Part shown: in pieces, positions 3,838-41,806 of the stretch
How the letters are laid out: each line of letters opens with the position of its first letter
How positions within the stretch are numbered: the first letter of the stretch is position 1
From: an uncultured Thermoanaerobaculia bacterium
GTDB taxonomy: Bacteria; Acidobacteriota; Thermoanaerobaculia; Thermoanaerobaculales; Sulfomarinibacteraceae
NCBI GenBank assembly: GCA_964597585.1
Contig: CAZQYU010000001.1
Span: 632 to 64,631 of the forward strand
Direction of reading: 5' to 3'
DNA: 64,000 nucleotides
Notes under the pieces: generated by a model
The model's input: the letters and a program-made list of their open reading frames with translations, nothing else
What the model was told of the DNA's origin: nothing
Databases searched by the model: none
Position numbers and translations under genes: made by a program

Positions 3838-6800
3838 ATGACTGGACGACTCACGTCTCAACTCACGGCAACCCGGCGGAGCCGGACCCGTGGGGGCCCG
3901 GTGGCGCTCGGCCTGCTGATTCTCGCGATGGCCGGGGTCGCCTTCGCCCAGGAGAATGCGGACTGTCTGACCTGTCACGACGACCCCGAGGCGACCGGGA
4001 CCAGGGTGGGCAAGGAGATCTCGACCTACGTCGACCCGGCGGCGTTTGCGCGGTCGGTCCACGGCGGCTTCGCGTGCATCGACTGCCACACCGACCTCGA
4101 TGGCGCCGAGCTTCCCCATGCCGAGGATCTTCAACCGGTGGACTGCGCCTCGTGTCACGACGACGTCGCGGCGGAGCAAGCCGAGGGTCCCCACGGCCGC
4201 TGGCCGAAGGTGCCGGGCTCCCCCTCGGCCGCGTGTGAACGCTGCCACGGTGTTCACGACGTCCTGCCACCGAAAGCGCCGGACTCGCCGGTCAACCGCG
4301 TACGAGTCGATTCTCTGTGCGGCACCTGCCACGTTCGCGAGTTGACAGCGGTCAAGACGAGCCCGCACGCTCCCGCCGCCGACGGGGCTCCGACCGCAAG
4401 TTGTGTCGACTGTCATCGTGGCCACTCCGTGACCGCACCGGCGGACCCGATCCGTCAGCTCGACACGTGCGGCCCCTGCCATGCTGAGCAGGCAAAGGGC
4501 CACAAACGCAGCCTTCACGGTCGCGCTGCGGTGAAGGGAGAACCGCTTGCGCCGAGCTGCGTGACCTGTCACGGCAACCACGCGATCCTGAGGCATACCA
4601 ACGAGAAGTCGCCGACCTACGTCACCAACATCCCACTCCTGTGCGGACGCTGCCACCGCGAGGGGACTGCGGTCACCAAGGAGTACAACATCCCACAGGA
4701 CCGCATCCTCGAGAACTTCTCGATGTCGGTCCACGGCCAGGGCCTGTACAAGATGGGCCTGACGGTCACCGCGGTCTGCACGTCGTGCCACACGTCGCAC
4801 GACATCCTCGACCACAACAACCCTGAATCCAGCATCAACCGGGCCAACGTCGCCAAGACCTGCATGAAGTGTCATGCCCGGATCGAACAGGTCCACGTGA
4901 AGGTGATCGAGGGCCGGCTGTGGGAGAAGGAGCCCCACAAGATCCCGTCCTGCGTCGAGTGCCATCAGCCGCACAAGATCCGCCGTCGGACCGTCGACAG
5001 CGTGGGGGGCGCGGCCAACCGGGACTGTATGCGTTGCCACGGCAAGCAGGACCTGACCATGGTCCGCGACGGTGAGACGATCTCTCTGTACGTCGACGCG
5101 GAGGCCTACGACCTCTCGATGCACGCCCGGGTGGCCTGCGCCCAGTGCCACAACGAGGTCACCGTCGGCCACCCGGAACGGGCCTGCATCACCATCAAAC
5201 ACAAGGTGGATTGCAGCATCTGCCACGCCGAGCAGGTGCAGGAGCAGGAGCTTTCCAAGCACGGGCGCCTCGCGGCCGAGGGCGACACGCAGGTTCCAAC
5301 CTGTCTGACATGCCACGACAAGCACGCGACCCAGAGCCACCTCCTGCCGACCGCCCCGACCTTCTCGCGCAACGTGCCGAAGCTGTGTGGACAGTGCCAC
5401 GCGGCGGGAGGCGTCGCCGCCGCGCGGATCACCGCCGACGTGCCCGACATCGTCGAGAGCTACCTCAAGTCGGCCCACGGCAAGGGTCTGATGGAGAGCG
5501 GCTTGGTCGTGTCCGCGAGCTGCATCGACTGCCACACCGCCCACAAGGCACTGCCGCCTGACGACCCCAACTCCTCGGTCAGCCGGGCCAATCTGGCCGA
5601 CACCTGCGGAGCCTGCCACAGGGGCATCGAGGAGCAGTTCAAGACCAGCATCCATTGGCCCGGGAACGTGGTCACCACGAAGAAGCTGCCGGTGTGCGAG
5701 GACTGCCATACCTCGCACTCGATTGGCCGGGTGGACACCTCGGACTTCCGCTTCGCCATGATGAACCAGTGCGGCAGGTGCCACGAGGACTATGCGAAGA
5801 CCTTCTTCGAGACTTACCACGGAAAGGTCACTCAGCTCGGCTCCCCCGGCGCCGCCAAGTGCTACGACTGCCACGGAACCCACAACATCCTGCCGGTCGA
5901 GGATCCCAACTCGACGCTGAGCCACCGCAACGTGGTCGACACCTGCGCCAAGTGCCACCCAGGCGCCCACCGGCAGTTCGCCGGCTACCTGACCCACGCC
6001 ACCCATCACGAGCCGGAGAAGTACCCCTTCCTGTTCTACTCGTTCTGGTTCATGACGCTGCTCCTGGTGGGAACGCTGACCTTCTTCCTGTTCCACACCT
6101 TCCTGTGGCTGTTCCGCCTGTGGCGGACCCGTGAGCAGTGGCGGGTCCACAAGAACGGCAAGGCGGAGCGGTACTACCTGAGGTTCACCAGCAAGCAGCG
6201 TGTGATGCACCTGGTGATGCTGCTCAGTTTCTTCACCCTCGCGCTGACCGGGATGACCCTCAAGTTCTCGTACATGCCGTGGGCGCACGGTCTGTCGAAG
6301 GTCCTCGGCGGCTTCGACACCATGGGGACCCTGCACCGGATCGGTGCGGTGACCCTGATCGCGCTCTTCCTTTTCCACATCCGCGACGTCTTCAAAGCCA
6401 AGGGGCGCTCCGGCAAGAGCTGGTTCAAGTTCATCTTCGGAACCAGCTCGCTGATGTTCAATCTCGACGACGTCAAGCAGTTCTGGAAGAGCACGAAGTG
6501 GTTCATCGGACGCGGTCCGCGTCCCGAGTACGGGCGCTTCACCTACTGGGAGAAGTTCGACTACTTTGCGGTGTTCTGGGGTGTGTTCGTGATCGGCTCG
6601 ACCGGGTTGCTGCTCTGGTTCCCGGAGTTCTTCACCCGCTTCCTACCGGGCTGGGCGATCAACGTCGCCACCATCATCCACAGCGACGAGGCGCTGCTCG
6701 CGGTCGGGTTCATCTTCACGATCCACTTCTTCAACACGCACTTCCGTCCCGACAAGTTCCCGATGGACCCGGTGATCTTCACCGGTCGCGTCTCGCTCGA

Positions 6801-6999
6801 AGAGCTCCGACACGACAAGCCCGCAGAGTACGAGGAGTTCGTCGAGCAGGCCTCCGAGGAGGAGCGGGCAAAGCGGGTCGTTGGTCCGGCTGCCCCCAAG
6901 ACCGAAAGGCTTTTCCGGATCTTCGGTTTCACGGCCCTTGGTATCGGGTTGACGCTGATCTTCCTGATCCTGTATGCGATGCTCTTTGGATACCGGTGA
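3838..6999 (+). CDS. Fusion protein: periplasmic 23-haem c-type cytochrome domain plus C-terminal FdnI/HydC/PhsC-like cytochrome b membrane domain
   Basis: Signal peptide ...LLILAMAGVAFA/QE. I counted 23 CxxCH motifs, from CLTCH at aa 43 to CAKCH at aa 703. About 6 hydrophobic helices follow, with conserved His residues (RVMHLVMLL, LHRIGAVTLIALFLFH, IIHSDEALLAVGFIFTIHFFNTH). It is a single uninterrupted 1053-aa ORF. Confidence 0.9.
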   Translation: MTGRLTSQLTATRRSRTRGGPVALGLLILAMAGVAFAQENADCLTCHDDPEATGTRVGKEISTYVDPAAFARSVHGGFACIDCHTDLDGAELPHAEDLQPVDCASCHDDVAAEQAEGPHGRWPKVPGSPSAACERCHGVHDVLPPKAPDSPVNRVRVDSLCGTCHVRELTAVKTSPHAPAADGAPTASCVDCHRGHSVTAPADPIRQLDTCGPCHAEQAKGHKRSLHGRAAVKGEPLAPSCVTCHGNHAILRHTNEKSPTYVTNIPLLCGRCHREGTAVTKEYNIPQDRILENFSMSVHGQGLYKMGLTVTAVCTSCHTSHDILDHNNPESSINRANVAKTCMKCHARIEQVHVKVIEGRLWEKEPHKIPSCVECHQPHKIRRRTVDSVGGAANRDCMRCHGKQDLTMVRDGETISLYVDAEAYDLSMHARVACAQCHNEVTVGHPERACITIKHKVDCSICHAEQVQEQELSKHGRLAAEGDTQVPTCLTCHDKHATQSHLLPTAPTFSRNVPKLCGQCHAAGGVAAARITADVPDIVESYLKSAHGKGLMESGLVVSASCIDCHTAHKALPPDDPNSSVSRANLADTCGACHRGIEEQFKTSIHWPGNVVTTKKLPVCEDCHTSHSIGRVDTSDFRFAMMNQCGRCHEDYAKTFFETYHGKVTQLGSPGAAKCYDCHGTHNILPVEDPNSTLSHRNVVDTCAKCHPGAHRQFAGYLTHATHHEPEKYPFLFYSFWFMTLLLVGTLTFFLFHTFLWLFRLWRTREQWRVHKNGKAERYYLRFTSKQRVMHLVMLLSFFTLALTGMTLKFSYMPWAHGLSKVLGGFDTMGTLHRIGAVTLIALFLFHIRDVFKAKGRSGKSWFKFIFGTSSLMFNLDDVKQFWKSTKWFIGRGPRPEYGRFTYWEKFDYFAVFWGVFVIGSTGLLLWFPEFFTRFLPGWAINVATIIHSDEALLAVGFIFTIHFFNTHFRPDKFPMDPVIFTGRVSLEELRHDKPAEYEEFVEQASEEERAKRVVGPAAPKTERLFRIFGFTALGIGLTLIFLILYAMLFGYR

Positions 7000-7192: not shown

Positions 7193-7852
7193 ATGACCAG
7201 GATTCTCGGTTTCTACGAGTCGACGCTGGGCAAGAAGTGGGTGATGGCCGCGACCGGCATCATCCTCTTCCTTTTCGTGGTGGTGCACATGCTCGGCAAC
7301 CTGCAGCTCTACCTCGGAGCGGAGCAGCTGAACCACTACGCCGAGCTCCTGCGCAAGAACATGGCGCTGCTGTGGACGGCGCGTTGCGTGCTGCTGTTCT
7401 GCGTCGCCGTGCACATCGTCGCGGCGGCCCAGGTGTGGCTCCGCAGCCGCGCAAGCCGACCGGTGAAGTACAGGGTCTTCCGTCCGCCTGCGGTGGACTA
7501 CGCGGCGCGGACCATGGCGTGGAGCGGACCGATCATCGCCGCGTTCGTGCTCTTCCACATCCTCGACCTGACGGTGGGTACCGTGCATCCCGGTTTCGTC
7601 CGTGGCGACGTCTACCACAACGTCGTCACGGGGTTCCAGAACCCCTGGGTGGCGGGCCTCTACATTCTCGCCAATGCGCTGCTCGCGATGCACCTCTACC
7701 ACGGCCTCTGGAGCCTCTTCCAGACCTTCGGCTGGGACCACCCGAAGCTCAACCCGTGGCGGCGTCGCGCCGCGGTCCTGTTCGCCGTGGCCATCGGGGC
7801 CGGCAACATCTCCATGCCGCTCGCCGTGCTCACCGGCGTCGTGCACCTGTGA
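7193..7852 (+). CDS. sdhC: Succinate dehydrogenase/fumarate reductase cytochrome b subunit (single b558-type anchor)
   Basis: 219 aa with five hydrophobic helices bearing His ([33 protein letters not shown]). It sits directly upstream of sdhA and sdhB. Confidence 0.85.
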
Positions 7853-7865
7853 GGAGGAACGGCCA

Positions 7866-9775
<1,910 letters not shown>

Positions 9776-9779
<4 letters not shown>

Positions 9780-10543
9780 AGCTGACGCTGCACATCTGGC
9801 GCCAGAGGGACCAAAACGACGCGGGCGGTTTCGCGACCTATCGGCTCGCCGACGTCAGCACCCACATGTCGTTCCTCGAGATGCTCGACGTCCTCAACCA
9901 GGAGCTGATCGAGAAGGGCGAGGAACCGGTCGCGTTCGAGCACGATTGCCGCGAGGGCATCTGCGGCTCGTGCGGTTTCGTCATCAACGGTCTCGCCCAC
10001 GGCGGTCAGCGCGGCAGCACGGTCTGTCAGCTGCACATGCGGCACTTCTCGGACGGTGACGAGCTGGTGCTCGAACCGTGGCGAGCCAAGGCGTTCCCGG
10101 TGCTCAAGGACCTGATCGTCGATCGTTCCGCATTCGACCGAATCATCCAGGCCGGGGGGTACGTGTCGGTTCAGACCGGTGCGCCGCCCGACGCCAACGC
10201 ACAGCCCATCGCCAAGGACACCGCCGATCTGGCCATGGACTTCGCGGAGTGCATCGGCTGCGGCGCCTGCGTGGCGTCGTGCCCGAACAGCGCGTCGATG
10301 CTGTTCGTGGGCGCCAAGATCGCGCACCTCGGGCTGCTCCCGCAGGGTCAGCCCGAGCGTGATGCGCGGGCGCGTGCGATGGTGACGGCGATGGAGGACG
10401 AGGCCTTCGGCGCCTGCTCCAACTACCGTTCCTGCGAGGCGGTCTGCCCGAAGGAGATCTCGATCTCCGCGATCGCGAGGATGAACAAAGACTTCCGGAA
10501 GGCGCAGCTTCGCCTCGCCGGCGCAAGCGGAAAGCGGAAGTAG
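9776..10543 (+). CDS. sdhB: Succinate dehydrogenase/fumarate reductase iron-sulfur subunit
   Basis: The ATG at 9776 overlaps the sdhA stop (ATGA). Cys clusters are [22 protein letters not shown] and CEAVCP. Confidence 0.95.
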
Positions 10544-10726
10544 CGAGCCCCCACTTTTCACCGGGTCGAGCTGCGAGCCTGCCGAGATGCGGCCGGCGTA
10601 GAGCCGTCGAGTGGCGAGCCGCCGAGGCGTCTGGAGACGCGCTGCAGGTGGTGGGTTGCGAGAGGGTCGGCGATCGCCGGCAGATCGGCGCTCGCAGCAG
10701 GGGACCGGTGAGATCTGCAGGCGAGA

Positions 10727-12001
10727 TCAGATCACGGTGTCGTCCGGGACGACGGCGTTCTTCGGAACCACGACGATCCCGTCGCGGATGGCCCACCCAT
10801 CGCCTTCCGCCTCGTCGAGGCCCCGCTCGTTGACGATCTTCACGCCGCGCCCGATCCGGGCGTTCTTGTCGATGATCGCGTTCACGATTTCGGTCTCTTC
10901 GCCGATACCGACCGGCGGCGCGTCGGCCGGGGCGTCAGGAACGTGGGAGTCAACTCCCATGATCAGGCAGCGATCGATTCTGCACCCGGTGGCGATGGCG
11001 CGCAGGCCGACCACGGAGTGCGTGACGACCGAGTCCTCGATCCGGGTTCCGTCCGCGAGCAGTACCCGGTCGAAGCTGCAGTGACGGAGCTCGGCGCCCG
11101 GGAGATACCGGGGCCGGGTGTAGAACGGCCATTCGTTGTCGTGGAAGGAGAATGGCGGATGGTCGGAGACGAGGTCCATGTGGGCTTCGAAGAAGGCCCG
11201 GATCGTCCCGATGTCGCGCCAGTAGCCGTTGAAGAAGTGAGTTTGCACGCGGAAGGGGCCCACCGCCGCCGGGATGATGTCGCGCCCGAAGTCGATTGCA
11301 TCGCTCGCCAGACACTCGAGCAGGACGCGCTTGCGAAACATGTAGATCCCCATCGAGCCGAGGTACGGCTCGGCGGCGCCGAGCCCTTCCCGGCGCATGA
11401 CCTCCTCGGGCAGCTCCATGCCCGTGCGTGCCTGAGGGGTGGCGGGCTTTTCGCGAAACTCGCGGATCCGGTTGTCATCATCGACGCGGACCGCGCCGAA
11501 ACCGGCGATCTCCTCCTCGGAGCACGGCATCACACCGACCGTGATGTCCGCACCGTGCTTGACGTGGTCGTCGAGCAGGGCGCGGTAGTCCATCCGGTAC
11601 ATGTGGTCGCCAGCCAGGATCAGGACGTGGTCCCCTGGTAGCTCGACGAACGAGCCGAGATTCTGTCGCACCGCGTCTGCGGTGCCCTGGAACCAGGCCT
11701 GCGCCCTCGGCGTCTGCTGGGCGGCCAGAATCTGGACGTAGCCGCGGGAGAAGGCGTCGAAACGGTAGGTGCGGCCGATATGGCGGTGGAGCGAAACCGA
11801 GTTGAACTGGGTGAGTACGTACATCCGTTCCATCGACGAGTTGATGGCGTTCGAGATCGGGATGTCGATCAGGCGGTACTTGCCCGCGATCGGTACAGCC
11901 GGCTTGGAGCGCAGGCGGGTGAGAGGCTCGAGGCGGGTTCCACGGCCGCCCCCGAGGATGAGGACGGTGACGTTGGCGGTGAGATCGTTGAGACGGGTCA
12001 T
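10727..12001 (-). CDS. glgC: Glucose-1-phosphate adenylyltransferase
   Basis: LILGGGRGTRLEPLTRLRSKPAVPIAGKYRLIDIPISNAINS is the family signature. ATG 12001 has GGAGGAGG about 10 nt upstream. Confidence 0.9.
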   Translation of the reverse strand: MTRLNDLTANVTVLILGGGRGTRLEPLTRLRSKPAVPIAGKYRLIDIPISNAINSSMERMYVLTQFNSVSLHRHIGRTYRFDAFSRGYVQILAAQQTPRAQAWFQGTADAVRQNLGSFVELPGDHVLILAGDHMYRMDYRALLDDHVKHGADITVGVMPCSEEEIAGFGAVRVDDDNRIREFREKPATPQARTGMELPEEVMRREGLGAAEPYLGSMGIYMFRKRVLLECLASDAIDFGRDIIPAAVGPFRVQTHFFNGYWRDIGTIRAFFEAHMDLVSDHPPFSFHDNEWPFYTRPRYLPGAELRHCSFDRVLLADGTRIEDSVVTHSVVGLRAIATGCRIDRCLIMGVDSHVPDAPADAPPVGIGEETEIVNAIIDKNARIGRGVKIVNERGLDEAEGDGWAIRDGIVVVPKNAVVPDDTVI

Positions 12002-19515: not shown

Positions 19516-20616
19516 ATGCAGAGCATGAAGCGTTGGAGCGTCCTCGCGGTCTGCCTTGTCGTCGCGTTGGTTGCCTGCGCGTCCACCTCCGCCAACGGTG
19601 GGCGCGACCCGATCTACTTCGGTCGTGCATCGTGGACGGCCGCGGTCATCGAACGCGGCCTCGATCCGGCAGATGTCGTGTATCCGTTCGACATCACTCC
19701 TGACATGGAAAAGTGGGCTCGCTCCGTCACCGAGCGGGACACCGGTACGGTGAGCCGGCTCAACAAGCTTCAGGCGGCGCTTTTCGCTCCGGGCGAGTTT
19801 CCATTCAGCTACGACCAGAAGGTGACGCTTCCGGGGAAGCGGGCGTTCAAGGAGCGTCGGGGAAACTGCCTGGCCTTCACGTCCATGTTCGTCAGCCTCG
19901 CCCGCAGCATCGGCCTGCCGGGATTCCTGGTGATGGTGCAGCGTACGCCGACGGTCGAACGGGACGAGGACATCGTGGTGGTCAACCGGCACGTCGTTGC
20001 CGGCTACTCCGAGGCGAGCCGCCTCTACCTGTTCGATTTCTACGAGAGATCTGAAACCCCCTACATCCAGACGCGGGTGATCGACGACCTCGCGGCGAGC
20101 GCGCTGTTCCATACCAACTTCGGTGGCGATGCCATTCGCGAGGGCGATGTCGAGCGCGCCGAGCTCAACTTCCGCATCGCGACACAGCTCGGACCCGAGC
20201 TGGCCGCACCATGGATCGGACTCGGTGTGATCCAGTTCCGACAGGGCAGGCTCGAGAGTGCGCTCGAATCGTATCGTCACGCCCTCGAAGTCGAACCTGG
20301 AAACCCGTCCGCGCTGACCAACTTGGCGCACCTCTACCGACGCCAGGGTCTCGAGGACCAGGCCGGTGCGGCCCTACGCGCCGCCGGCGAGGGTTCCTCG
20401 AGCCCGTTCACGCTCATAGCCCTCGCCGACAGCGAAATGGCGCAGGGCGATGTGCGGCGGGCCAGGCACTACCTCCGCAAGGCACGGCACAACTACCGCG
20501 ACGAGCCTGAAGTGTGGGAAGCCATGGCGCGCCTCGAGACCGCACGCGGCGACCAGTCCGCTGCCCAGCGGTACCGCGACCGGGCGCGGGCGCTACGCGC
20601 CGACGGGGACAGCTGA
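19516..20616 (+). CDS. Lipoprotein with a transglutaminase-like cysteine-protease core and C-terminal TPR repeats
   Basis: Lipobox VVALVAC. RRGNCLAFTSMF contains the candidate catalytic Cys, followed by NRHVVAGY and a later Asp. TPR-like repeats sit in the C-terminal half. The start may instead be ATG 19525. Confidence 0.7.
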   Translation: MQSMKRWSVLAVCLVVALVACASTSANGGRDPIYFGRASWTAAVIERGLDPADVVYPFDITPDMEKWARSVTERDTGTVSRLNKLQAALFAPGEFPFSYDQKVTLPGKRAFKERRGNCLAFTSMFVSLARSIGLPGFLVMVQRTPTVERDEDIVVVNRHVVAGYSEASRLYLFDFYERSETPYIQTRVIDDLAASALFHTNFGGDAIREGDVERAELNFRIATQLGPELAAPWIGLGVIQFRQGRLESALESYRHALEVEPGNPSALTNLAHLYRRQGLEDQAGAALRAAGEGSSSPFTLIALADSEMAQGDVRRARHYLRKARHNYRDEPEVWEAMARLETARGDQSAAQRYRDRARALRADGDS

Positions 20617-20751
20617 GCGGGCCGACCCGCACTCGGGACAGGGCGCCGTGCGGAAGCTCAGGTTGTGTCGCCTGTTGTATTCTGCTCCGTCGAGTGACGG
20701 CGACCGAGAGCTGCGCGACCCGCCGCGACTCGGTTGGAGGGTGAAGGCGAG

Positions 20752-22068
20752 ATGGACGGAGCCGGGGAACTCGATCGGGAACGCCGCCAAGATCCTCGCG
20801 CGGAGTTGCACGTCGAGCTCATGTACGACTCGTTCTCCTCCTTCCTCAGTGTCGCCGCGGGCAATCTCTCCCGCGGCGGCATGTTCCTCACCGTCCCGGA
20901 TCCCGCTCCCGCCGGTACCCGGCTGTCCTTCGAGGCGCGCCTCCGTGACGGCTCGAGTCTCATTCGTGGCCAGGGCGAGGTGGTGTGGACGCGGACCGAG
21001 GTCACCGCGGGCCTGCCGACAGGCATGGCGATCCGGTTCACCCGCCTGACCGCCCAGGCGAGGGAGCTTATTGCCCGCCTGCTCGAGCAGTACCCGGACG
21101 GCAAGAGCGGGAGCGTGCGCTTGGGAGGCGTCCGGCTGGGCAAGGCGAGAGCACTCGTCGGGACCGCCCCGGCGCCGGTCGAACGGTCCCTTCCTCTGGG
21201 AGAGCCTCTCGCTCCGGAGCCGTCGCCGGCCGACAGGGATCGGCCAGACCGACCTCCGGTCCTGCCCGAGCAGGAAGGCGTGCCCCGCCGCGCCTTGAAC
21301 GAGGAGGCACAACCGACCACTCAACCCCACGAGCGCGCGCCGGAGATCCGAGTCACCGACGAGGTCGGATCGGAGTTCGATTTCACGCTGCCGCCGTGGG
21401 AGACCGAGGAGATCCCCGCCGAGCTGCGGCCGCCGAACCCTGTCCGCATGATTTTGATCGCCCTCGCGGTCCTTTGTCTCATGCTGGTCGTGATCTACCT
21501 CGGACCGCTCAACCTGATCGAGAGTGTGGGGCACATCGGCTCAGCGATCTCGCACCGCCTCATGCCGCAATCCTCGACACGTCCGACCCCTGCCACCGTG
21601 CAGCGCGCCGGTTCGGTCGAGCTCGGGCCCAACCACGATGCCGCGGCCGCTCCGAGTGCCGCGTCCGAGGACGGCGGCTCCCAGGCCGCAGACACGACTG
21701 AAAGGTCCGGGCAGACTGCTGCATCCGCATCGTTGATCGTCGACAGGGTCGCGTGGCGCCGCGACGCCGCCGGCGTGGTGGTCACGGTGGAGGCGAACCG
21801 TGACATCCCGCGAGACGCCGTCCACTACGGGTCGTTGAGTGAACCGCCACGGTACGTCGTCCGCATCATCGGCGTCACCGACTACCGCGGGAATGCGACG
21901 CTGGAGCTTCATCGCGAGGACCTGTTGCGGATCCGGATCGGCGTGCACGGGGACCATGTGCCAGCGGAGATTGACATCGTCCTCGACCTGGGCTCGAGCT
22001 TGGTCACGGTCGAGCCGCTAGGCATTCATGGGCGTCGGGTGGAGCTCGCAGTCCGGTTCGGGGGCTGA
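20752..22068 (+). CDS. PilZ domain - transmembrane helix - AMIN domain protein
   Basis: ATG 20752 follows GGAGGGTGAAGG. PilZ motifs are RQDPR (RxxxR) and NLSRGG (D/NxSxxG). TM helix is MILIALAVLCLMLVVIYLG. The C-terminus is AMIN-like (PPRYVVRIIGV...LRIRIGVH...IDIVLDL). Confidence 0.8.
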   Translation: MDGAGELDRERRQDPRAELHVELMYDSFSSFLSVAAGNLSRGGMFLTVPDPAPAGTRLSFEARLRDGSSLIRGQGEVVWTRTEVTAGLPTGMAIRFTRLTAQARELIARLLEQYPDGKSGSVRLGGVRLGKARALVGTAPAPVERSLPLGEPLAPEPSPADRDRPDRPPVLPEQEGVPRRALNEEAQPTTQPHERAPEIRVTDEVGSEFDFTLPPWETEEIPAELRPPNPVRMILIALAVLCLMLVVIYLGPLNLIESVGHIGSAISHRLMPQSSTRPTPATVQRAGSVELGPNHDAAAAPSAASEDGGSQAADTTERSGQTAASASLIVDRVAWRRDAAGVVVTVEANRDIPRDAVHYGSLSEPPRYVVRIIGVTDYRGNATLELHREDLLRIRIGVHGDHVPAEIDIVLDLGSSLVTVEPLGIHGRRVELAVRFGG

Positions 22069-22188
22069 TGAAGGAGAGCGGGACGCTCGGGTACGGTTCG
22101 CCCGAGCTGGTTCCGCGCTACCATTCGTCATCACCAGCCGGAGCTCGAACCGGTGTCAACGACGGGCTTGAGGTAGGAGGACGGTGTC

Positions 22189-22707
22189 ATGAACGCGAGG
22201 AGACTCGGAGAGATGTTGTGCGACAAGCAGCTGGTCGACGACGAGTCACTGCGGACGGCGCTCGAGGTTCAGCGCGGTACCGGAGAGCGGCTCGGCTCAA
22301 CCCTGCTTCGCCTCGGCCTCGTCGATAGCGCCTCGCTCGCCCGCATCCTGGGCGAGCAGCTGGAAGTGGAGGCGGTGGATCCCTCGTCGGAGTTTCCGGA
22401 GGCCGACGCCCTCGCGTTGATGTCCTTCACCGATGCGATGCGCCTCGGATGCCTGCCTCTGAGGGTGCGTGAGGGCGAGCTCACAATCGCCATGACGGAA
22501 CCCCACGATGAAGGCTCATGTGCTCAGATCGCAGCACTGACGGGCACTCGCGTGCATGCCGTCGTCGCGCCCCAGATGGCGCTCTTCGAGGCGCTCAAGC
22601 GAGTTTACCGCGGCGCTTCCATAGAGGACGAGAAGGTCACGAGAATCCGGCGGGTGGCTATCGGACTCCGCGCACTCGCCGATGAGCTTGAGGGCCTTCT
22701 GGGCTAG
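22189..22707 (+). CDS. Stand-alone MshEN (T2SSE_N) c-di-GMP receptor domain protein
   Basis: The RBS is GAGGTAGGAGGA. Two tandem 24-residue motifs are separated by a 5-residue spacer (RGTGE): RLGEMLCDKQLVDDESLRTALEVQ and RLGSTLLRLGLVDSASLARILGEQ. There is no ATPase domain, and the protein is only 172 aa. Confidence 0.85.
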   Translation: MNARRLGEMLCDKQLVDDESLRTALEVQRGTGERLGSTLLRLGLVDSASLARILGEQLEVEAVDPSSEFPEADALALMSFTDAMRLGCLPLRVREGELTIAMTEPHDEGSCAQIAALTGTRVHAVVAPQMALFEALKRVYRGASIEDEKVTRIRRVAIGLRALADELEGLLG

Positions 22708-22783
22708 CAGCGCGCACCGCACAGCCCGCCGATCGCCCTTGCGTCGGGTGACCGCGGCCGGGGGGCTCTGCGGTGCGCGCTGC
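22707..22783. repeat. Long inverted repeat (20-bp arms, 19/20 complementary, 37-nt spacer) between convergent genes
   Basis: GCAGCGCGCACCGCACAGCC (22707-22726) pairs with GGCTCTGCGGTGCGCGCTGC (22764-22783). It begins inside the MshEN stop codon. A second hairpin, GATCGG-N5-CCGATC, lies at 22787-22803. Confidence 0.6.
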
Positions 22784-22892
22784 CTCGATCGGCTCCGCCG
22801 ATCTTGTGGGCAGATCACCGGGTGCGGCGGAGGCGGTCAGAGCTTTGGCCGCTGCCTGAGCCGGCGTAACGCAGGTCCGGCCGGAAGCGTCC

Positions 22893-25193
22893 TCATGCGG
22901 ATGAGCCCGCGTCGAGCTGCGACGAGGGCACGGGATGGATGGGAACGACCCGGTTCCGGCCGGCGCGCTTTGCGCGCAGCAGCGCCACGTCGGCGTCAGC
23001 GATCAGCCTTCGCGTCGACTCCTTTCCGGCGTGCTGCGGGCCGATCTGGGCGAGCCCGATCGAGATCGTGACCCTGACCGGGACGTCATGCTCCACCGCG
23101 AGCTCGAGAGTTTCGACCGTGGCTCGCGCCTTTTCAGCGACCTGCACTGCCCCCGCCAGATCCGTCTCGGGAAGGACAAACAGGAACTCTTCGCCGCCGT
23201 AGCGTCCGACTGCATCGCTGGTACGGAGCCCATCCTTGAGCGCTTGGGCGACCATCTTGAGAAGGGTGTCGCCGGCGAGGTGGCCGTAGCGGTCGTTGAC
23301 CCGCTTGAACTCGTCGATGTCGGCCATGCCGACCGAGAGAGGCCGATCGTGTCGGACCGCGCGCTGGATCTCCTGCGCGAGGATGTCCTGCACGGCCTCT
23401 CTCCGCAGAAGACCGGTCAGGCGCTCATAGGTCGCGGACTCGAACAGGCGCACGTTCTCGAGCACGCTGGCTATGGTGTGCGAGAACAGTCCCAGGAGCT
23501 CGATCTCTTCTCCGACGAAGCGAGCGCCGTCGTTCTTGGGACCGAGCAGGAGGATACCGACCAGATTGTCGCCGGAGCGCAAAGCCAGCGCCCACTGTGC
23601 GTCGAACTGCTGGAGTCGCTGTGCGATGGTGGCGCTGCGACGTCCGACCGCCTGTGCGGGAATCAGTCGTCCGGTCTGCCGAAGCATCCGGACTCCCTCG
23701 TCGTCCGGACCGAGGAGCAGCGAGTGTTCGGCATTGCCGTCGAGGTCGATGGCCGTGGAGGCGAGGCTGACCAGGATTGCGGTGCGCGGGTCGGCGACCA
23801 GGAGCGACGCCGAACGGGCGTCGAAGATGTCCCGGATCTCAGCAACCAGGTGGCGCCCCATGGCCGGGAGGCTACCGAGCGCGGGCAAGGTCTCGGCGAG
23901 CTGCGTCAGTCGCTTGCGCATGGCGATCCGTTCAGGGAACACGCGAGTGTCGATCACACGCTGAACGGCACCGCGCAGCGGGGCGAACAGGAGCCCGGTG
24001 CACAGCGCAACCGCACTGATCAGCCACACGGGGAGCCTGCCTCCGACAACCACGAGCGAGACCGCATTGCCGCCGATCCAGAGCAGGCCGAGAGCGACCG
24101 CCGCCAGAGCCAAGGTCACAATGGTGTAGACCAATCCCCTGCGCACCACGATTTCGATGTCGACGAGTCGGTAACGGAAGATCGCGATGAAGACCGCGAG
24201 AGGGTAGGCGAGCAGCGCCAGCGGTTGGACCACTGTGTCGAGCACGCCCGGCAGTGGTCGCCCCAGGGCACTGGCGAAAGTCGACACAAAGGTGTAGGTG
24301 GCCCACGGCAGCACGCCAAGCAGGACCAGCAAGGCCTGGGTCCGCTCTCGGGACGTGGTGGACCGGCGCACCTGACCGAGCATGATGAGGACGACGGCGA
24401 GCGCCCAGGTCGGGAGCAGGACGACGTCCAGAGCGACGACAACCTGGTCGGTGGTCCAGACCAACGCAGGAAAGCGGAGCGCCTCCGCGACCTCGGTGAA
24501 GACGCCAAGAGCCGCAAATGAGAGCCCAGCACCATAGAACAGCCGGCGTGGCGTGGCGCGACCGATCATCCACGGCGCACGTCGGGGGATGGCGGCCGCG
24601 AGGTCGAGCTCAAGCCCCATCTGGAGCCCGCTGAGCAGGAAGAACAGGCTCGAACCAATCACTTCGGCAAGGGTGCCGTCCGAGAGCTGCGCTGGCAGGG
24701 CGAGCTCGATCGCGACCGCGGCGGAGAACCAGAACAAGAGCCGGCTGCGCAGATCGGGCGGCTGCTGCTGGAGGGCGAGCAGTCCCAGACCCAGGTAGCC
24801 GAGCGCAGCCAGTGTGTTGATGATCAGGATGGCCCACGGCACCGAGGCGCCGGGGACCGCTTCGAGGGTCAGCTCGGCGCCATCGCGGCGAATCGTCAGC
24901 CGGGCCGGTTGACCGGCCCTGAATCCGAGCGCGGCACGGTCGTAGTCAGCGTAGTCGCGGACCCGGAGACCATCGACGGCTATCAGCCGGTCGCCGGCGA
25001 GGACGCCTGCGGACGACGCACCGAGCTCGGGATTGACGCTCTCGACGAGCAGCCCTCCCTCCCGCGCGACGGAGATCGCGAACCCGAGGCGCTGCTCCGC
25101 CATGCGACCCGCATGGTGCCACTGGAACAGGCTCATGCCGGCAACGAGCACGATCAGGGCCAGGCCCGCAGAGCGTCTGATGGAGTGTGTCAC
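22893..25193 (-). CDS. Membrane diguanylate cyclase: TM - PDZ - multi-TM - GAF - GGDEF
   Basis: The active site is GGEEF in RTSDAVGRYGGEEF, which also carries an RxxD I-site 5 residues upstream. The PDZ-like segment is LLVESVNPELGASSAGVLAGDRLIAVDG. There are about 9 further hydrophobic helices. The start is uncertain (GTG 25193 or 25229). The track start at 25493 overlaps the neighbouring gene and is rejected. Confidence 0.85.
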   Translation of the reverse strand: MTHSIRRSAGLALIVLVAGMSLFQWHHAGRMAEQRLGFAISVAREGGLLVESVNPELGASSAGVLAGDRLIAVDGLRVRDYADYDRAALGFRAGQPARLTIRRDGAELTLEAVPGASVPWAILIINTLAALGYLGLGLLALQQQPPDLRSRLLFWFSAAVAIELALPAQLSDGTLAEVIGSSLFFLLSGLQMGLELDLAAAIPRRAPWMIGRATPRRLFYGAGLSFAALGVFTEVAEALRFPALVWTTDQVVVALDVVLLPTWALAVVLIMLGQVRRSTTSRERTQALLVLLGVLPWATYTFVSTFASALGRPLPGVLDTVVQPLALLAYPLAVFIAIFRYRLVDIEIVVRRGLVYTIVTLALAAVALGLLWIGGNAVSLVVVGGRLPVWLISAVALCTGLLFAPLRGAVQRVIDTRVFPERIAMRKRLTQLAETLPALGSLPAMGRHLVAEIRDIFDARSASLLVADPRTAILVSLASTAIDLDGNAEHSLLLGPDDEGVRMLRQTGRLIPAQAVGRRSATIAQRLQQFDAQWALALRSGDNLVGILLLGPKNDGARFVGEEIELLGLFSHTIASVLENVRLFESATYERLTGLLRREAVQDILAQEIQRAVRHDRPLSVGMADIDEFKRVNDRYGHLAGDTLLKMVAQALKDGLRTSDAVGRYGGEEFLFVLPETDLAGAVQVAEKARATVETLELAVEHDVPVRVTISIGLAQIGPQHAGKESTRRLIADADVALLRAKRAGRNRVVPIHPVPSSQLDAGSSA

Positions 25194-25365
25194 TTCGGTC
25201 CTGAAGGTTGCGACAACCGTTTCGAGCACTCCGATTGTCCGCCTCGAGCCGCAGTATAGCGGGGCTGTCGCTTGCGGTGGCTCTCTCCGCGTGGATGTTC
25301 GAGACAACCGTCGGCTGCTGGCAGCAGGGAGAGGGGGTTGCGAAAGAGCGCCGGGCGGGAACTGC

Positions 25366-26025
25366 TCAGCTTCGAGGCGATACTTCCGGCCACAAGGAGC
25401 GGCCATGGAGCTCGACGTCGAGGCGCTCGGTGATCTCGTCGAGCCGGGCTTTGAGGGCAGCGCGTGCGGCGGCCGGACGCTGGTCCTCCGCAACCCACAG
25501 CGGCTCGCCGAGCTCCACCACGACCCTCGAGAACGGGGGGGCGATGATCATGTGGTCCCACGAGTGCAACCGCCAAAAGGGTCGGCTCGAGAAGCTGATG
25601 GGAATGAGAGGAATCTGAAAGGAGCGAGCGAGCTCGATTGCTCCGCGCTTCGGCTGCGCGATCGGGCCGCGGGGTCCATCAACCGTGAGACCGACCAGCT
25701 GCCCACGGCCCTCCTTGAGCCAGGTGCGAATCTGCTCGTAGGCCTCCGCGCCACCTTTCCACACGGATCCCCGAGCCGGAACGAGACCGAGCCGGGTAAT
25801 CGCCCGCGCGGCGATTTCGCCGTCAGTTGAGCGTGACGACATGGTGAGAACGCCCCGGTTCGCGATCGCAAAGATTGGGCACTGCATGCGGCCATGCCAG
25901 GTCGCCAGAACGGCACGGGGGTGCAGCTCGAGACGTTCGAGGCCGCGAATCGTGGTGCGCAGGCTCCGGCGCCAGGCCACGAGCACCAGCCCAAGCGCTT
26001 CACCGGCGAGACGGACCTTCCACAT
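25366..26025 (-). CDS. Lysophospholipid acyltransferase-like protein (DUF374 family)
   Basis: The sequences LATWHGRM...SRSTDGEIAARAITRLGLVPARGS and LTVDGPRGP match my recollection of the DUF374 family. ATG 26025 is preferred. Confidence 0.7.
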   Translation of the reverse strand: MWKVRLAGEALGLVLVAWRRSLRTTIRGLERLELHPRAVLATWHGRMQCPIFAIANRGVLTMSSRSTDGEIAARAITRLGLVPARGSVWKGGAEAYEQIRTWLKEGRGQLVGLTVDGPRGPIAQPKRGAIELARSFQIPLIPISFSSRPFWRLHSWDHMIIAPPFSRVVVELGEPLWVAEDQRPAAARAALKARLDEITERLDVELHGRSLWPEVSPRS

Positions 26026-26141
26026 GGCGCGATTGTACGACGCCGCCGTATGGCCCGTTGAATCCCGGGTGACCACCTCCTGTGGTATCATTCCCGCCCG
26101 CTGGACGCCGCTCCGGCCGCGTTCGGGTCAAGAGGCCTGCC

Positions 26142-39337: not shown

Positions 39338-41806
39338 CTAGGTGCGCAACGTGGTCATACGATTGAAGGCGAAGAGAGCGGCGAGGCCCACCGGAGCCCA
39401 GGCCCCGAGGAGGGGAGGGAGGATGTCGGCTTCGCCCATCTTTCCGAACACCGCGACGAGCAGGAAGTAGCCGATCCCGAGCGCAAGCGCCAGGGCGACT
39501 CCGTTGATGGTGGTGATCCGGCGACCGCCGCGGTTGAGTCCGAATGGGAGTGCCAGCAGCACCATCACGAATGCAGACAGCGGATAGGTGATCTTCTGAT
39601 ACCAGCGTACGATGAGCTTGACGGGACGATAGCCGGACTCGGTCAGTTCGGTGATGTAGCTCTCGAGCTCGCGGTAGCTCATCTCTCCGGGCTGGTGGTG
39701 CTCCTGCCCGAAGTAGCTCGGGGCCTCGGGAACTCCCAGCTCCATCGGCTCAGTGATGCTGTGAAAGACGTCGCTCCCGTCGGGGAGGAACTTCCGGAAC
39801 CAGCCCGAGTCGGCGATCCAGCCCCCGTGCTGATACTGCACTCGATCGGCAAAGAGCTGGAAGGTGAGGTGGAAATTCGAATCGAGCCTGAACATCGAAA
39901 AGCGCAGCATCGTCTGCGCCTGTGGGTCGAACTGCAGGAAGTTGTAGAGGGTCGAACCATCCCTCGACAGGAGCCAGAGGCGGTCGGCCCCGTACGAGCG
40001 GCTGGTCTCCCGTCCCTTGATACGGTCGAGCAGACGCTGCGCCTCGCGGTTGGCCTGCGGCACCACCGATTCCCCCAGGAACCATAGGCCGGTGGCCGCC
40101 CCCGCGGCGAGCAGAAGAACCGGCACCATGACCCGGAACAGCGAGATCCCGGCGGCCTTGAAGGCGGTCAGCTCGACCTGACGCTCCATGATCGTCAGGG
40201 CGATCAGGACCGCGATCAGAAGGCCCAGCGGCGTCACGTCGAGAAGGACCTGGGGTATGAGGTTGGCGTAGTAGGCGACCGCGACCGACGCGGAGACCGA
40301 GCTCTTCGCAAGGTCGTCGATCCGGTCCGTGAGGTCAACCACCACGTACAGCGCCGAGGCCGTCAGGAGCACCAGGAGTAGGGGAGTCAGGAGCCTCGTC
40401 GCCACGTAGCGGTCGAGCATCGCCGGGAAGCGGGTCCCGTACCGTCGCTTCTGGAGCGACGTGGGAATCGACCCCGTCAAAGGAGGCCTCAGGCCGGCCG
40501 CCTCCCGGGCGGGCCGAGGGCGGGAGGCTTCGCGATGCGCACGCCACGCTCGCGCCAAACGTGACGTGATTCTCTCGCCGCGCCGTCGTTCGCCGAGCCA
40601 GTAGCCCATGCGACGCATCATCACCAGCGCGACTCCGGCGACCAGTACGTTGGCGAGCCAGGACCCGACCCAGACCGGAACTCGACCCTCCTGTGCCAGC
40701 AGCCGGCCGTTGTTGAAGATGATGTAGTAGGCGAGGATCACGCCGATCGAGAGGATGAAGCCGCGCCCTCGCCCGCCGCCACGTGATCCGATCCCGAGGG
40801 GTAGGGCGATGAGGGCGAAGGCGACGCAGGCAACTGGAAGGGCGAGCCGGCTGTGCAGCTCCATGAGGACCTGAATCAGTGTCTCCTTGCGCCTCCGCTC
40901 ACCTTCCGAATCGGTTGTGCCGGCGGCGAGCTGATCGAGCAGCGTCACCAGCTCGCGTGTGGATCGCTCGCGCATGCCGAGGCTGACCTCGACAGTACCC
41001 CGCTCATTCGGGATCAGCTTGACGAGCTGCGTCTGGTTCACATTGCGTCGGTAGGTGGCTGGGTGGCTGGATGAGAACTGATGGGTCGTGGCGTCTTCCA
41101 GAAGGAGCCAGGGTGTGCCCTCGCCGCCCCCTTGGGGGACGCCCTCCGGGGCGTCGACGCCGTCGTTGGCGGTTGGCCGCTCTGCCACGAGCCGCCCACT
41201 GCGGGCGAGCGTCAAGAGCTCCTCATCGGGGTTGCTGCGGTCGTAGAGCAGCACATTGTGCCAGACGGAGGTCACCGGATCGACATCCTCGACGTAGAGC
41301 AGCAGGTTCGGAAAGCTCTCGTTGAACACTCTCGGCTCGACCCGCCCCAGGCTCTTGGCCGACGTGAACATCTCCACCTTCATCACCCGCAGCTCTCGGT
41401 TCGCCCGGGGCATGACGATCAAGGTCAACCAGGCATTCAGCGCACCGAACACGAGCGACAGGGCGAGTACGGGGACGAGCACACGACGCATTGAGATGCC
41501 CGCCGCCTGGAGAGCTGTGATCTCGTTGTCACCGTTCATTCGCCCGAGCGCGAGCAGGACGCCGAACAGGTAGCTCATCGGAACTGTCAGCACGACGACA
41601 TGGGGAACCGTCAGTGAGAGGAACCGGAGCGCCTGGTGGAATGGGACGCCACGGACGAAGACCTGCTCCATCAACCCGAAGATCGGCCGCATGAGGAGGA
41701 AGAAAGTGTAGGTGCCGAAACCGAGCGCCGTCGGACCCAACACCTCCCGCACCAGTGAGCGGTCGAGCACGCCGCCGACGGACAGGCTGAATCGCCGTCG
41801 CCTCAC
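39338..41806 (-). CDS. Fused LptF-LptG lipopolysaccharide export permease (two YjgP/YjgQ-family halves in one ORF)
   Basis: The N-half reads LDRSLVREVLGPTALGFGTYTFFLLM...NGDNEITALQAAGISMRRVL. The C-half reads MLDRYVATRLLTPLLLVLL...ERQVELTAFKAAGISLFRVM. An Arg-rich linker of about 70 aa joins them, with no stop codon between the halves. Confidence 0.8.
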   Translation of the reverse strand: MRRRRFSLSVGGVLDRSLVREVLGPTALGFGTYTFFLLMRPIFGLMEQVFVRGVPFHQALRFLSLTVPHVVVLTVPMSYLFGVLLALGRMNGDNEITALQAAGISMRRVLVPVLALSLVFGALNAWLTLIVMPRANRELRVMKVEMFTSAKSLGRVEPRVFNESFPNLLLYVEDVDPVTSVWHNVLLYDRSNPDEELLTLARSGRLVAERPTANDGVDAPEGVPQGGGEGTPWLLLEDATTHQFSSSHPATYRRNVNQTQLVKLIPNERGTVEVSLGMRERSTRELVTLLDQLAAGTTDSEGERRRKETLIQVLMELHSRLALPVACVAFALIALPLGIGSRGGGRGRGFILSIGVILAYYIIFNNGRLLAQEGRVPVWVGSWLANVLVAGVALVMMRRMGYWLGERRRGERITSRLARAWRAHREASRPRPAREAAGLRPPLTGSIPTSLQKRRYGTRFPAMLDRYVATRLLTPLLLVLLTASALYVVVDLTDRIDDLAKSSVSASVAVAYYANLIPQVLLDVTPLGLLIAVLIALTIMERQVELTAFKAAGISLFRVMVPVLLLAAGAATGLWFLGESVVPQANREAQRLLDRIKGRETSRSYGADRLWLLSRDGSTLYNFLQFDPQAQTMLRFSMFRLDSNFHLTFQLFADRVQYQHGGWIADSGWFRKFLPDGSDVFHSITEPMELGVPEAPSYFGQEHHQPGEMSYRELESYITELTESGYRPVKLIVRWYQKITYPLSAFVMVLLALPFGLNRGGRRITTINGVALALALGIGYFLLVAVFGKMGEADILPPLLGAWAPVGLAALFAFNRMTTLRT

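Follow-up and report, generated by a model that had tools for sequence, protein, structure and literature searches.

The window analysed here, a stretch of 64,000 nucleotides (64 kb) from an uncultured Thermoanaerobaculia bacterium (contig CAZQYU010000001.1), encodes at 22189..22707 on the forward strand a 172-amino-acid (aa) protein that is a complete MshEN domain, comprising the subdomains MshEN_N and MshEN_C, followed by a short helical tail and no ATPase. We consider it probable, at roughly 0.6, that this protein is a functional free-standing receptor for cyclic di-GMP (c-di-GMP) and that it acts as a c-di-GMP-gated adaptor. It carries no output, enzymatic or DNA-binding module, and it would therefore have to act through binding alone, hence the term adaptor. 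Single-domain PilZ adaptors such as MapZ, which are small receptors without an output domain that bind their partners in a ligand-dependent manner, provide the analogy for this term, their fold and binding mode being unrelated to those of MshEN.

Domain identity and the predicted c-di-GMP site

The gene begins with an ATG codon and ends with a stop codon that is included in the coordinates above; both the open reading frame (ORF) list and the profile matches, relatives and substitution rates described below identify it as a gene. A Shine-Dalgarno sequence, AGGAGG, lies 8 nt before the ATG (22175..22180, forward strand), with GGAGG kept in the four close relatives that were aligned and a related purine-rich GGGGG in a more distant one. 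As a sequence-only reading of this DNA had proposed, the 172-aa ORF contains two 24-residue motifs separated by 5 residues; the 53-residue unit that they form does exist, but it spans residues 5-57 and not the first 53 residues, where it had been placed. Motif 1, RLGEMLCDKQLVDDESLRTALEVQ (residues 5-28, nt 22201..22272), aligns without gaps to residues 9-32 of VcMshE, and the spacer RGTGE (residues 29-33, nt 22273..22287) gives the same spacing as in VcMshE. Motif 2, RLGSTLLRLGLVDSASLARILGEQ (residues 34-57, nt 22288..22359), was matched in full by a strict regular expression for the consensus. The published pattern, RLGxx(L/V/I)(L/V/I)xxG(L/V/I)(L/V/I)xxxxLxxxLxxQ in two 24-residue copies with 5 residues between them (Wang et al. 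2016, PMC5013675), agrees with motif 2 at all specified positions and with motif 1 at 10 of the 12, the exceptions being position 7 (C11) and position 10 (Q14), so that the earlier description of a complete second and a twice-deviating first motif stands. Translated in six frames, the window yielded the strict motif a single time, and 100 shuffles never did; the two-motif ligand-contact pattern likewise occurs once, against no occurrence in shuffles; the motif is therefore not there by chance.

Profile, sequence and structure searches agreed on the assignment to MshEN with a short helical tail, which the sequence-only reading had already made. The NCBIfam model NF053729 ('c-di-GMP_motif', 'cyclic di-GMP-binding domain-containing protein, MshE-related') matched residues 5-57 at 54.9 bits (cut-off 38), and the Pfam family MshEN (PF05157) matched residues 59-143 at 55.9 bits (cut-off 23.1), corresponding to the MshEN_C (T2SSE_N1-like) alpha/beta subdomain at nt 22363..22617. 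With phmmer against the PDB, the MshEN domain of VcMshE (5htl) aligned to residues 4-140 with an E value of 2.6e-15 and without gaps over residues 4-106; further matches were to the three GSPII domains of T. thermophilus PilF and to the N-domains of Myxococcus and Geobacter PilB. An AlphaFold2 model built with 19 relatives as input (predicted local distance difference test, pLDDT, of 88) comprises an MshEN_N four-helix bundle (helices 6-12, 18-31, 35-41 and 47-58) and an MshEN_C of three strands plus helices up to residue 141, the latter with pLDDT above 90. Foldseek searches of the PDB with this model placed MshE in complex with c-di-GMP (5htl) first (E 2.6e-10, probability 1.00), followed by PilF GSPII (c-di-GMP-bound GSPII-B, and GSPII-A), the X. 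citri PilB(N)-PilZ complex (7lkm/7lko) and XpsE, with weak matches to 2bh1 and 4pht.

The ligand site itself appears to be preserved. The VcMshE contact residues R9, L10, G11, L25, L29 and Q32 correspond to R5, L6, G7, L21, L25 and Q28 in motif 1, and R38, L39, G40, L54, L58 and Q61 correspond to R34, L35, G36, L50, L54 and Q57 in motif 2, all of them present; mutation of these 12 residues in VcMshE reduces or abolishes c-di-GMP binding (PMC5013675). A further residue that touches a guanine from MshEN_C, VcMshE D108, is replaced by Glu104 in the window protein and is Asp in 30 of 34 relatives. Among 34 family members, the 12 contact columns have a mean conservation of 0.91, compared with 0.57 elsewhere in the protein, and the six motif 2 contacts are conserved at 88-100%. 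Position 1, where it is substituted, mostly shows K in place of R, and the extended consensus (R/K/L)LG permits K there (PMC5013675; PMC11731258). The deviant residues C11 and Q14 of motif 1 lie outside the ligand-contact positions and vary across the family, where they are among the most variable positions: position 7 of motif 1 is mostly Arg, and position 10 is Gly in only 6/34 members in motif 1 and 11/34 in motif 2. Since the contact columns are the most conserved while the deviant motif 1 positions vary, selection acts on the c-di-GMP site, and with all 12 contact equivalents present, c-di-GMP binding by the protein is strongly predicted; from this conservation we judge it highly probable.

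These data also bear on the possibility of a degenerate domain that no longer binds the ligand and serves as a protein-interaction module only, as in XpsE, X. citri PilB and PilF GSPII-A. Non-binding MshEN folds are well documented, and such a domain would fit the departure of motif 1 even from the relaxed pattern of Wang et al. However, both deviations fall at helix-bundle or turn positions where the family varies freely, and all 12 contact positions are intact, in the most conserved columns; XpsE, by contrast, has lost G11, L29, R38, G40, L54, L58 and Q61 (PMC5013675). Loss of binding is thus very improbable for the window protein.

The C-terminal helix and a proposed mechanism

Beyond MshEN_C, the AlphaFold2 model and column-by-column conservation delimit a family-specific C-terminal amphipathic helix (residues 146-171, nt 22624..22701), modelled with pLDDT of 73-81 after a low-confidence linker at residues 144-146. 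None of the alignments to PDB MshEN domains extends past about residue 147. The helix displays a hydrophobic stripe of heptad-like 3-4-3-4 spacing (I153, V156, L160, L163, L167 and L170) together with conserved charges at R154, R161 and E168, and position 166 is mostly E. In the model, this combination suggests that the helix may pack against a helix of a partner or of a second copy of the protein.

By homology to VcMshE and PilF GSPII-B, the two motifs would bind one monomeric c-di-GMP between them, at an affinity in the nanomolar to low-micromolar range. The N and C subdomains would reorient on binding, and the signal would be relayed via protein-protein contacts of MshEN_C and/or the tail helix. 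In PilF GSPII-B, a helical turn unwinds and the two subdomains change their relative orientation once c-di-GMP is bound (PMC11731258), and such a change could plausibly be the switch by which MshEN_C or the tail engages a partner. We favour a c-di-GMP-gated adaptor because the fold has known partners, namely PilZ-fold proteins, as in the X. citri PilB(N)-PilZ complex (PMC8389850), and GspL-type platform proteins (2bh1, 4pht).

An intact gene rather than an ATPase remnant

The short length of the protein is the only feature that speaks for a cut-down relic of a full-length secretion ATPase gene, a pseudogene or an assembly artefact. Downstream of the MshEN stop codon, 185 bp (22708-22892) lead up to the stop codon at which a convergent GGDEF gene ends. 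The sequence-only reading had seen no ATPase remnants in this interval, which our searches confirmed and extended: tblastn with ten T2SSE-ATPase-bearing MshEN proteins found no T2SSE ATPase anywhere in the window, the MshEN parts of the queries matching only 22189-22630 and their ATPase parts only unrelated P-loops elsewhere. Pfam T2SSE (PF00437) has no match in the protein, whose chain ends at residue 172; because it lacks this domain, the protein does not belong to the MshE/PilB/GspE ATPase family.

Database searches recovered 34 relatives of 163-234 aa with the same architecture, tail included, at 40-78% identity, and the 170-187-aa architecture with a Met start is present in at least 14 clusters at 50% identity. 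Nei-Gojobori dN/dS for the gene was 0.14-0.17 against three relatives and 0.31 against a more distant one (L004; related contigs are denoted by L numbers), and an identical MshEN sequence occurs on an independent metagenome contig (L008). The sequence-only reading had named a truncated pseudogene as an outcome that would undo it; the tblastn searches, lengths and dN/dS came out negative for a pseudogene. Together with the downstream DNA and the L008 copy, they lead us to reject a truncated MshE/PilB/GspE remnant, a pseudogene or an artefact, which retains a negligible probability.

A small family within a common class of ATPase-less proteins

MshEN without an ATPase is ordinary. More than 10,000 MshEN proteins have been described, including fusions with GT2 (NfrB), REC, HD-GYP and kinase domains, and the list of Wang et al. 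2016 already contains the ATPase-less PA3740 (MshEN-xT2SSE_N1), cce_1044 ((MshEN_N)2) and Bd2402 (PMC5013675). A profile search of 1.84 billion representative proteins gave 30,940 matches at E <= 1e-3; among the best 150 of these, phmmer with the T2SSE domain found that domain in 38 and not in 112, a count that is approximate, as some ATPase-less entries may be contig-truncated fragments. Those without it are MshEN-only proteins (one to several copies), MshEN-GT2 and MshEN-REC. The sequence-only reading had held that MshEN domains are normally the N-termini of secretion ATPases; such fusions exist, but the list of Wang et al. and the 112 of 150 best matches indicate that the rarity of other arrangements was overstated.

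What sets the present case apart is a small family made of one MshEN domain plus a conserved helix. It is known from metagenomes and metagenome-assembled genomes (MAGs) only, and all named records are Acidobacteriota: one-genome-per-species GTDB contigs gave a single match, in an uncultured Acidobacteriota MAG at 76% identity, the remaining named members belong to MAGs labelled 'Acidobacteria bacterium' or 'Thermoanaerobaculia bacterium', and a metagenome scan with the family gave six loci. Family proteins are annotated as hypothetical or mislabelled MshE/PilB. In the literature searched, we found no experimental study of a protein made of a single MshEN domain. Other close MshEN relatives include P0022, P0024 and P0025, of ~1320 aa, with five to six tandem MshEN domains and a GT2 glycosyltransferase, and many 290-370-aa proteins consisting of two MshEN domains only. 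Weak Pfam DUF4388 matches overlap MshEN_N in several close relatives.

Neighbouring genes

The gene directly upstream (20734..22068, forward strand) encodes a 444-aa protein with a cytoplasmic PilZ domain (Pfam PilZ, 44 bits; TIGR02266), a long low-complexity linker, one transmembrane (TM) helix and a periplasmic AMIN-like beta domain, hereafter PilZ-TM-AMIN-like. Its PilZ domain has canonical RxxxR (RQDPR) and NxSxxG (NLSRGG) motifs. The Pfam AMIN model did not match the protein even at E up to 10; the AlphaFold2 model of the C-terminal 124 aa (pLDDT 78) had as top PDB matches AmiC (4bin, an AMIN-domain protein; TM-score 0.64), PilQ B2 (4aqz) and M. xanthus PilQ (3jc8), at marginal E values of 1.5e-3 to 7e-2. 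One gene further upstream, 19516..20616 on the same strand encodes a lipoprotein (lipobox LVAC) with a transglutaminase-like core and TPR repeats, assigned by Pfam.

Convergent to the MshEN gene, on the reverse strand at 22893..25493, lies a gene for a diguanylate cyclase with PDZ, multi-pass membrane, GAF and GGDEF regions (Pfam GGDEF 144 bits, PDZ and GAF; NCBIfam). Its translation contains GGEEF and an RxxD I-site (RTSD) and no EAL domain. The called ORF overlaps by 128 nt an adjoining gene at 25366..26091 on the reverse strand, assigned to Pfam DUF374. The true start of the cyclase is probably further downstream than called, since tblastn homology to relatives begins near residue 72-78; the called genes of relatives are 759-762 aa. 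Over its membrane and GAF part, the cyclase bears a weak resemblance to PrsK, a PEP-CTERM histidine kinase (TIGR02916, E 1e-7). In L004, DUF374, PDZ and GGDEF are called as one fused 981-aa product (8551-11496), and L010 carries a cyclase with internal deletions.

No terminator-like sites were found in the 117- and 120-bp gaps among the lipoprotein, PilZ and MshEN genes, and a simple consensus scan, which may not suit Acidobacteriota, found no sigma-70 promoter between the latter two. Rfam at gathering thresholds gave nothing in the window, and so no c-di-GMP riboswitch upstream, the only match near the gene being a chance-level one to a snoRNA. Alignment of the PilZ-MshEN spacer revealed a 17-nt block, TTCCGCGCTACCATTCG (22111..22127, forward strand), ~62 nt upstream of the MshEN start codon, which the window, L001, L007 and L019 share in nearly identical form despite divergence of the spacer around it, and which is not conserved in L004. 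It coincides with no Rfam family and no sigma-70 consensus. From its conservation, the block is possibly a promoter of the MshEN gene's own, or an operator or other regulatory site.

A gene flanked by those for a PilZ receptor and for a cyclase that appears active, and encoding a protein with no output domain, would also suit a pure c-di-GMP sink or buffer without a partner, which would sequester the product of the adjacent cyclase and so fix the threshold for receptors of lower affinity, for example the adjoining PilZ domain. MshEN binds more tightly than most PilZ domains, with dissociation constants (KD) of 0.5 uM down to 6-14 nM (PMC5013675, PMC11731258). Yet the isolated 62-residue MshEN_N binds at least as well (PMC5013675), and a pure buffer is less likely because MshEN_C and the charged tail have been maintained although the 53-residue MshEN_N would suffice for buffering. 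Furthermore, the MshEN gene is under purifying selection in L019, which has no intact cyclase, though the divergence there is very recent. We therefore hold buffering to be quite improbable.

The window as a whole is core chromosome (parAB, rpoN, lptFG, ptsI, hprK, scpAB, rpsA). Elsewhere within it, 3838-6999 (forward strand) encodes a multihaem cytochrome of 1053 aa with cytochrome c7/c3, paired CXXCH and MtrC/MtrF domain II/IV features, to which a cytochrome b561-like membrane domain is apparently fused, and is followed at 7602-9779 by a 725-aa flavoprotein of the fumarate-reductase/succinate-dehydrogenase type. At 39338-41806 (reverse strand), a single 822-aa ORF with two LptF_LptG matches is apparently a fused LptF-LptG permease.

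Conservation of gene order and the weight of the adaptor reading

The order PilZ-TM-AMIN-like gene, MshEN gene and convergent GGDEF gene is retained in L001, L007 and L004. Identity of the MshEN protein to that of the window is 76-78% in L001, L007 and L019 and 51% in L004, and the position of the transglutaminase/TPR lipoprotein gene is conserved in L001, L004, L007, L018 and L019.

Several observations weigh against the reading of the protein as a c-di-GMP-gated adaptor and against its coupling to these neighbours. The adaptor role presupposes the predicted binding, and motif 1 has two non-consensus residues, at non-contact positions; the tail helix, a proposed contact surface, is modelled at moderate confidence. 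Synteny in the relatives reaches far past the c-di-GMP genes, to helicases, rpsA, an amino oxidase and a sigma-54 regulator. In L018, the genes for the TPR protein (79% identity), the PilZ-AMIN-like protein (54%) and the cyclase (76%) are kept and the MshEN gene is absent, with 64 bp only (8297-8360) between the PilZ-AMIN-like gene and the cyclase. In L019 (8937-9557), the PilZ and MshEN (78%) genes are kept and only fragments of the cyclase are found, corresponding to residues 224-297 and 808-863. Finally, nine other family members, of 40-54% identity, have unrelated neighbours: sucCD with M16 peptidases; BrkB; a sulfatase; HtrA with FHA; an acyltransferase with FHA; aroDE; a Ser/Thr kinase; HtrA with a pilin-like gene; and a DUF4832 protein.

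Because the conserved order lies inside a longer syntenic block, adjacency alone is weak evidence of coupling, and the trio is not obligatory, given L018 without MshEN and L019 without an intact cyclase. Since all three genes occur in the more distant L004, they probably represent the ancestral state, from which parts have been lost independently. The earlier suggestion to check whether homologues always adjoin the PilZ-AMIN gene thus has a negative answer: adjacency is confined to the clade of the window, and the nine unrelated contexts rule out an obligatory link.

Within the other contexts, a gene for an HtrA-type Trypsin-PDZ protease lies directly upstream of the family member in L020 (4728-6564, 9484-10683) and L023 (1283-3694), and FHA/Yop-YscD_cpl proteins are encoded near it in L020 and L021 (3245-5016). 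The divergent neighbour in L023 is a pilin/pseudopilin-like gene (N_methyl, T2SSG). L023 and the MshEN-less L018 come from the same source metagenome.

So many unrelated contexts would be expected for a factor working at a distance, and the protein could act in trans, independently of its neighbours, on a machine for type IV pili or type II secretion whose genes lie elsewhere in the genome, as a c-di-GMP-dependent cofactor or as a decoy competing with the PilB/GspE N-domain for PilM/GspL-type platform proteins. Consistent with this, the N1 subdomain of GspE (MshEN_C) is its GspL-binding part, with weak Foldseek matches to 2bh1 and 4pht, the closest PDB sequence relatives are all N-domains of pilus or secretion ATPases, and one family member adjoins the pilin-like gene in L023. 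On the other hand, no pilus or secretion gene (pil, msh, gsp) was found among the scanned genes of the 64-kb window, and a pilin-like neighbour occurs in one of about ten contexts. Action in trans is accordingly unlikely.

With respect to the c-di-GMP-gated adaptor, the most plausible partners in the clade of the window would be the neighbouring PilZ-TM-AMIN-like protein and the PDZ-GAF-GGDEF cyclase, as a local c-di-GMP module, an assignment we consider possible but doubtful; binding of a PilZ-fold protein by the N-domain of X. citri PilB is a structural precedent. A more specific version, in which these three proteins form a peptidoglycan-anchored local c-di-GMP complex with MshEN and PilZ in contact as in Xanthomonas PilB-PilZ-FimX, is decidedly unlikely. 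In such a complex, the MshEN-PilZ pair would have been detached from the pilus motor and reused as a two-receptor switch, with the C-terminal helix of the MshEN protein as its output arm.

Comparison with known systems

The window protein shares with the MshEN domain of VcMshE (5HTL, PMC5013675) the two-subdomain fold, the 24-residue motifs with a 5-residue spacer and the 12 contacts, at 31-32% identity over 138 columns. Whereas MshEN in VcMshE forms the N-terminal end of a T2SSE ATPase whose gene belongs to an msh pilus operon, it constitutes the whole protein in the window, together with a 26-residue helix, and no pilus genes are nearby. The best sequence relative in the PDB is PilF of T. 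thermophilus (6f8l, E 6.6e-31 summed over repeats), whose isolated MshEN-type domain GSPII-B (8PDK) binds c-di-GMP autonomously with a KD of 6 nM (PMC11731258). In contrast to the window protein, GSPII-B belongs to a tandem array of three copies that is fused to an ATPase, and position 1 of its motifs is K or L, not R.

P. aeruginosa PA3740, Cyanothece cce_1044 and Bdellovibrio Bd2402 are likewise MshEN-type c-di-GMP receptors without a secretion ATPase, and PA3740, in which the c-di-GMP-binding LxxxLxxQ motif has been identified, is linked to swarming. Going by their descriptions, they are set apart from the window protein by an additional, diverged N1 domain, by duplication of MshEN_N with no MshEN_C present, or by fusion to REC, and by the lack of a C-terminal helix. 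E. coli NfrB (GT2-MshEN) is another non-ATPase MshEN receptor, served by the dedicated and physically associated cyclase DgcJ in local signalling (PMC8669469), and the NCBIfam NfrB model aligns to residues 4-151 of the window protein. However, MshEN is fused in NfrB to a glycosyltransferase output, which the window protein lacks, and the link of the window protein to the neighbouring cyclase is hypothetical.

The X. citri PilB-PilZ-FimX complex (7LKM/7LKO, PMC8389850), in which an MshEN fold directly binds a PilZ fold that in turn binds a GGDEF-containing protein, resembles the locus in that the window encodes the three folds side by side, and the AlphaFold2 model of the MshEN protein superposes on 7lkm with a TM-score of 0.6-0.68. 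The X. citri complex contains a type II PilZ protein that fails to bind c-di-GMP and FimX with a degenerate GGDEF-EAL, neither of which corresponds to the window locus: as judged from their motifs, MshEN and PilZ here keep their binding residues, PilZ is part of a membrane-anchored protein that has an AMIN-like domain, and the GGDEF domain is apparently active and accompanied by no EAL.

Significance

MshEN is, to our knowledge, one of only three widespread c-di-GMP receptor domains, together with PilZ and ComFB. In the mechanistic work that our literature search found, MshEN copies have an ATPase or a glycosyltransferase attached as their output, and signal output from an MshEN domain without one is not addressed. 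The present family offers a minimal case, one MshEN domain and one helix, with natural variants of the locus that lack the receptor gene or the cyclase. The value of the finding is incremental, without a new principle; it would add a named c-di-GMP receptor to the Acidobacteriota.

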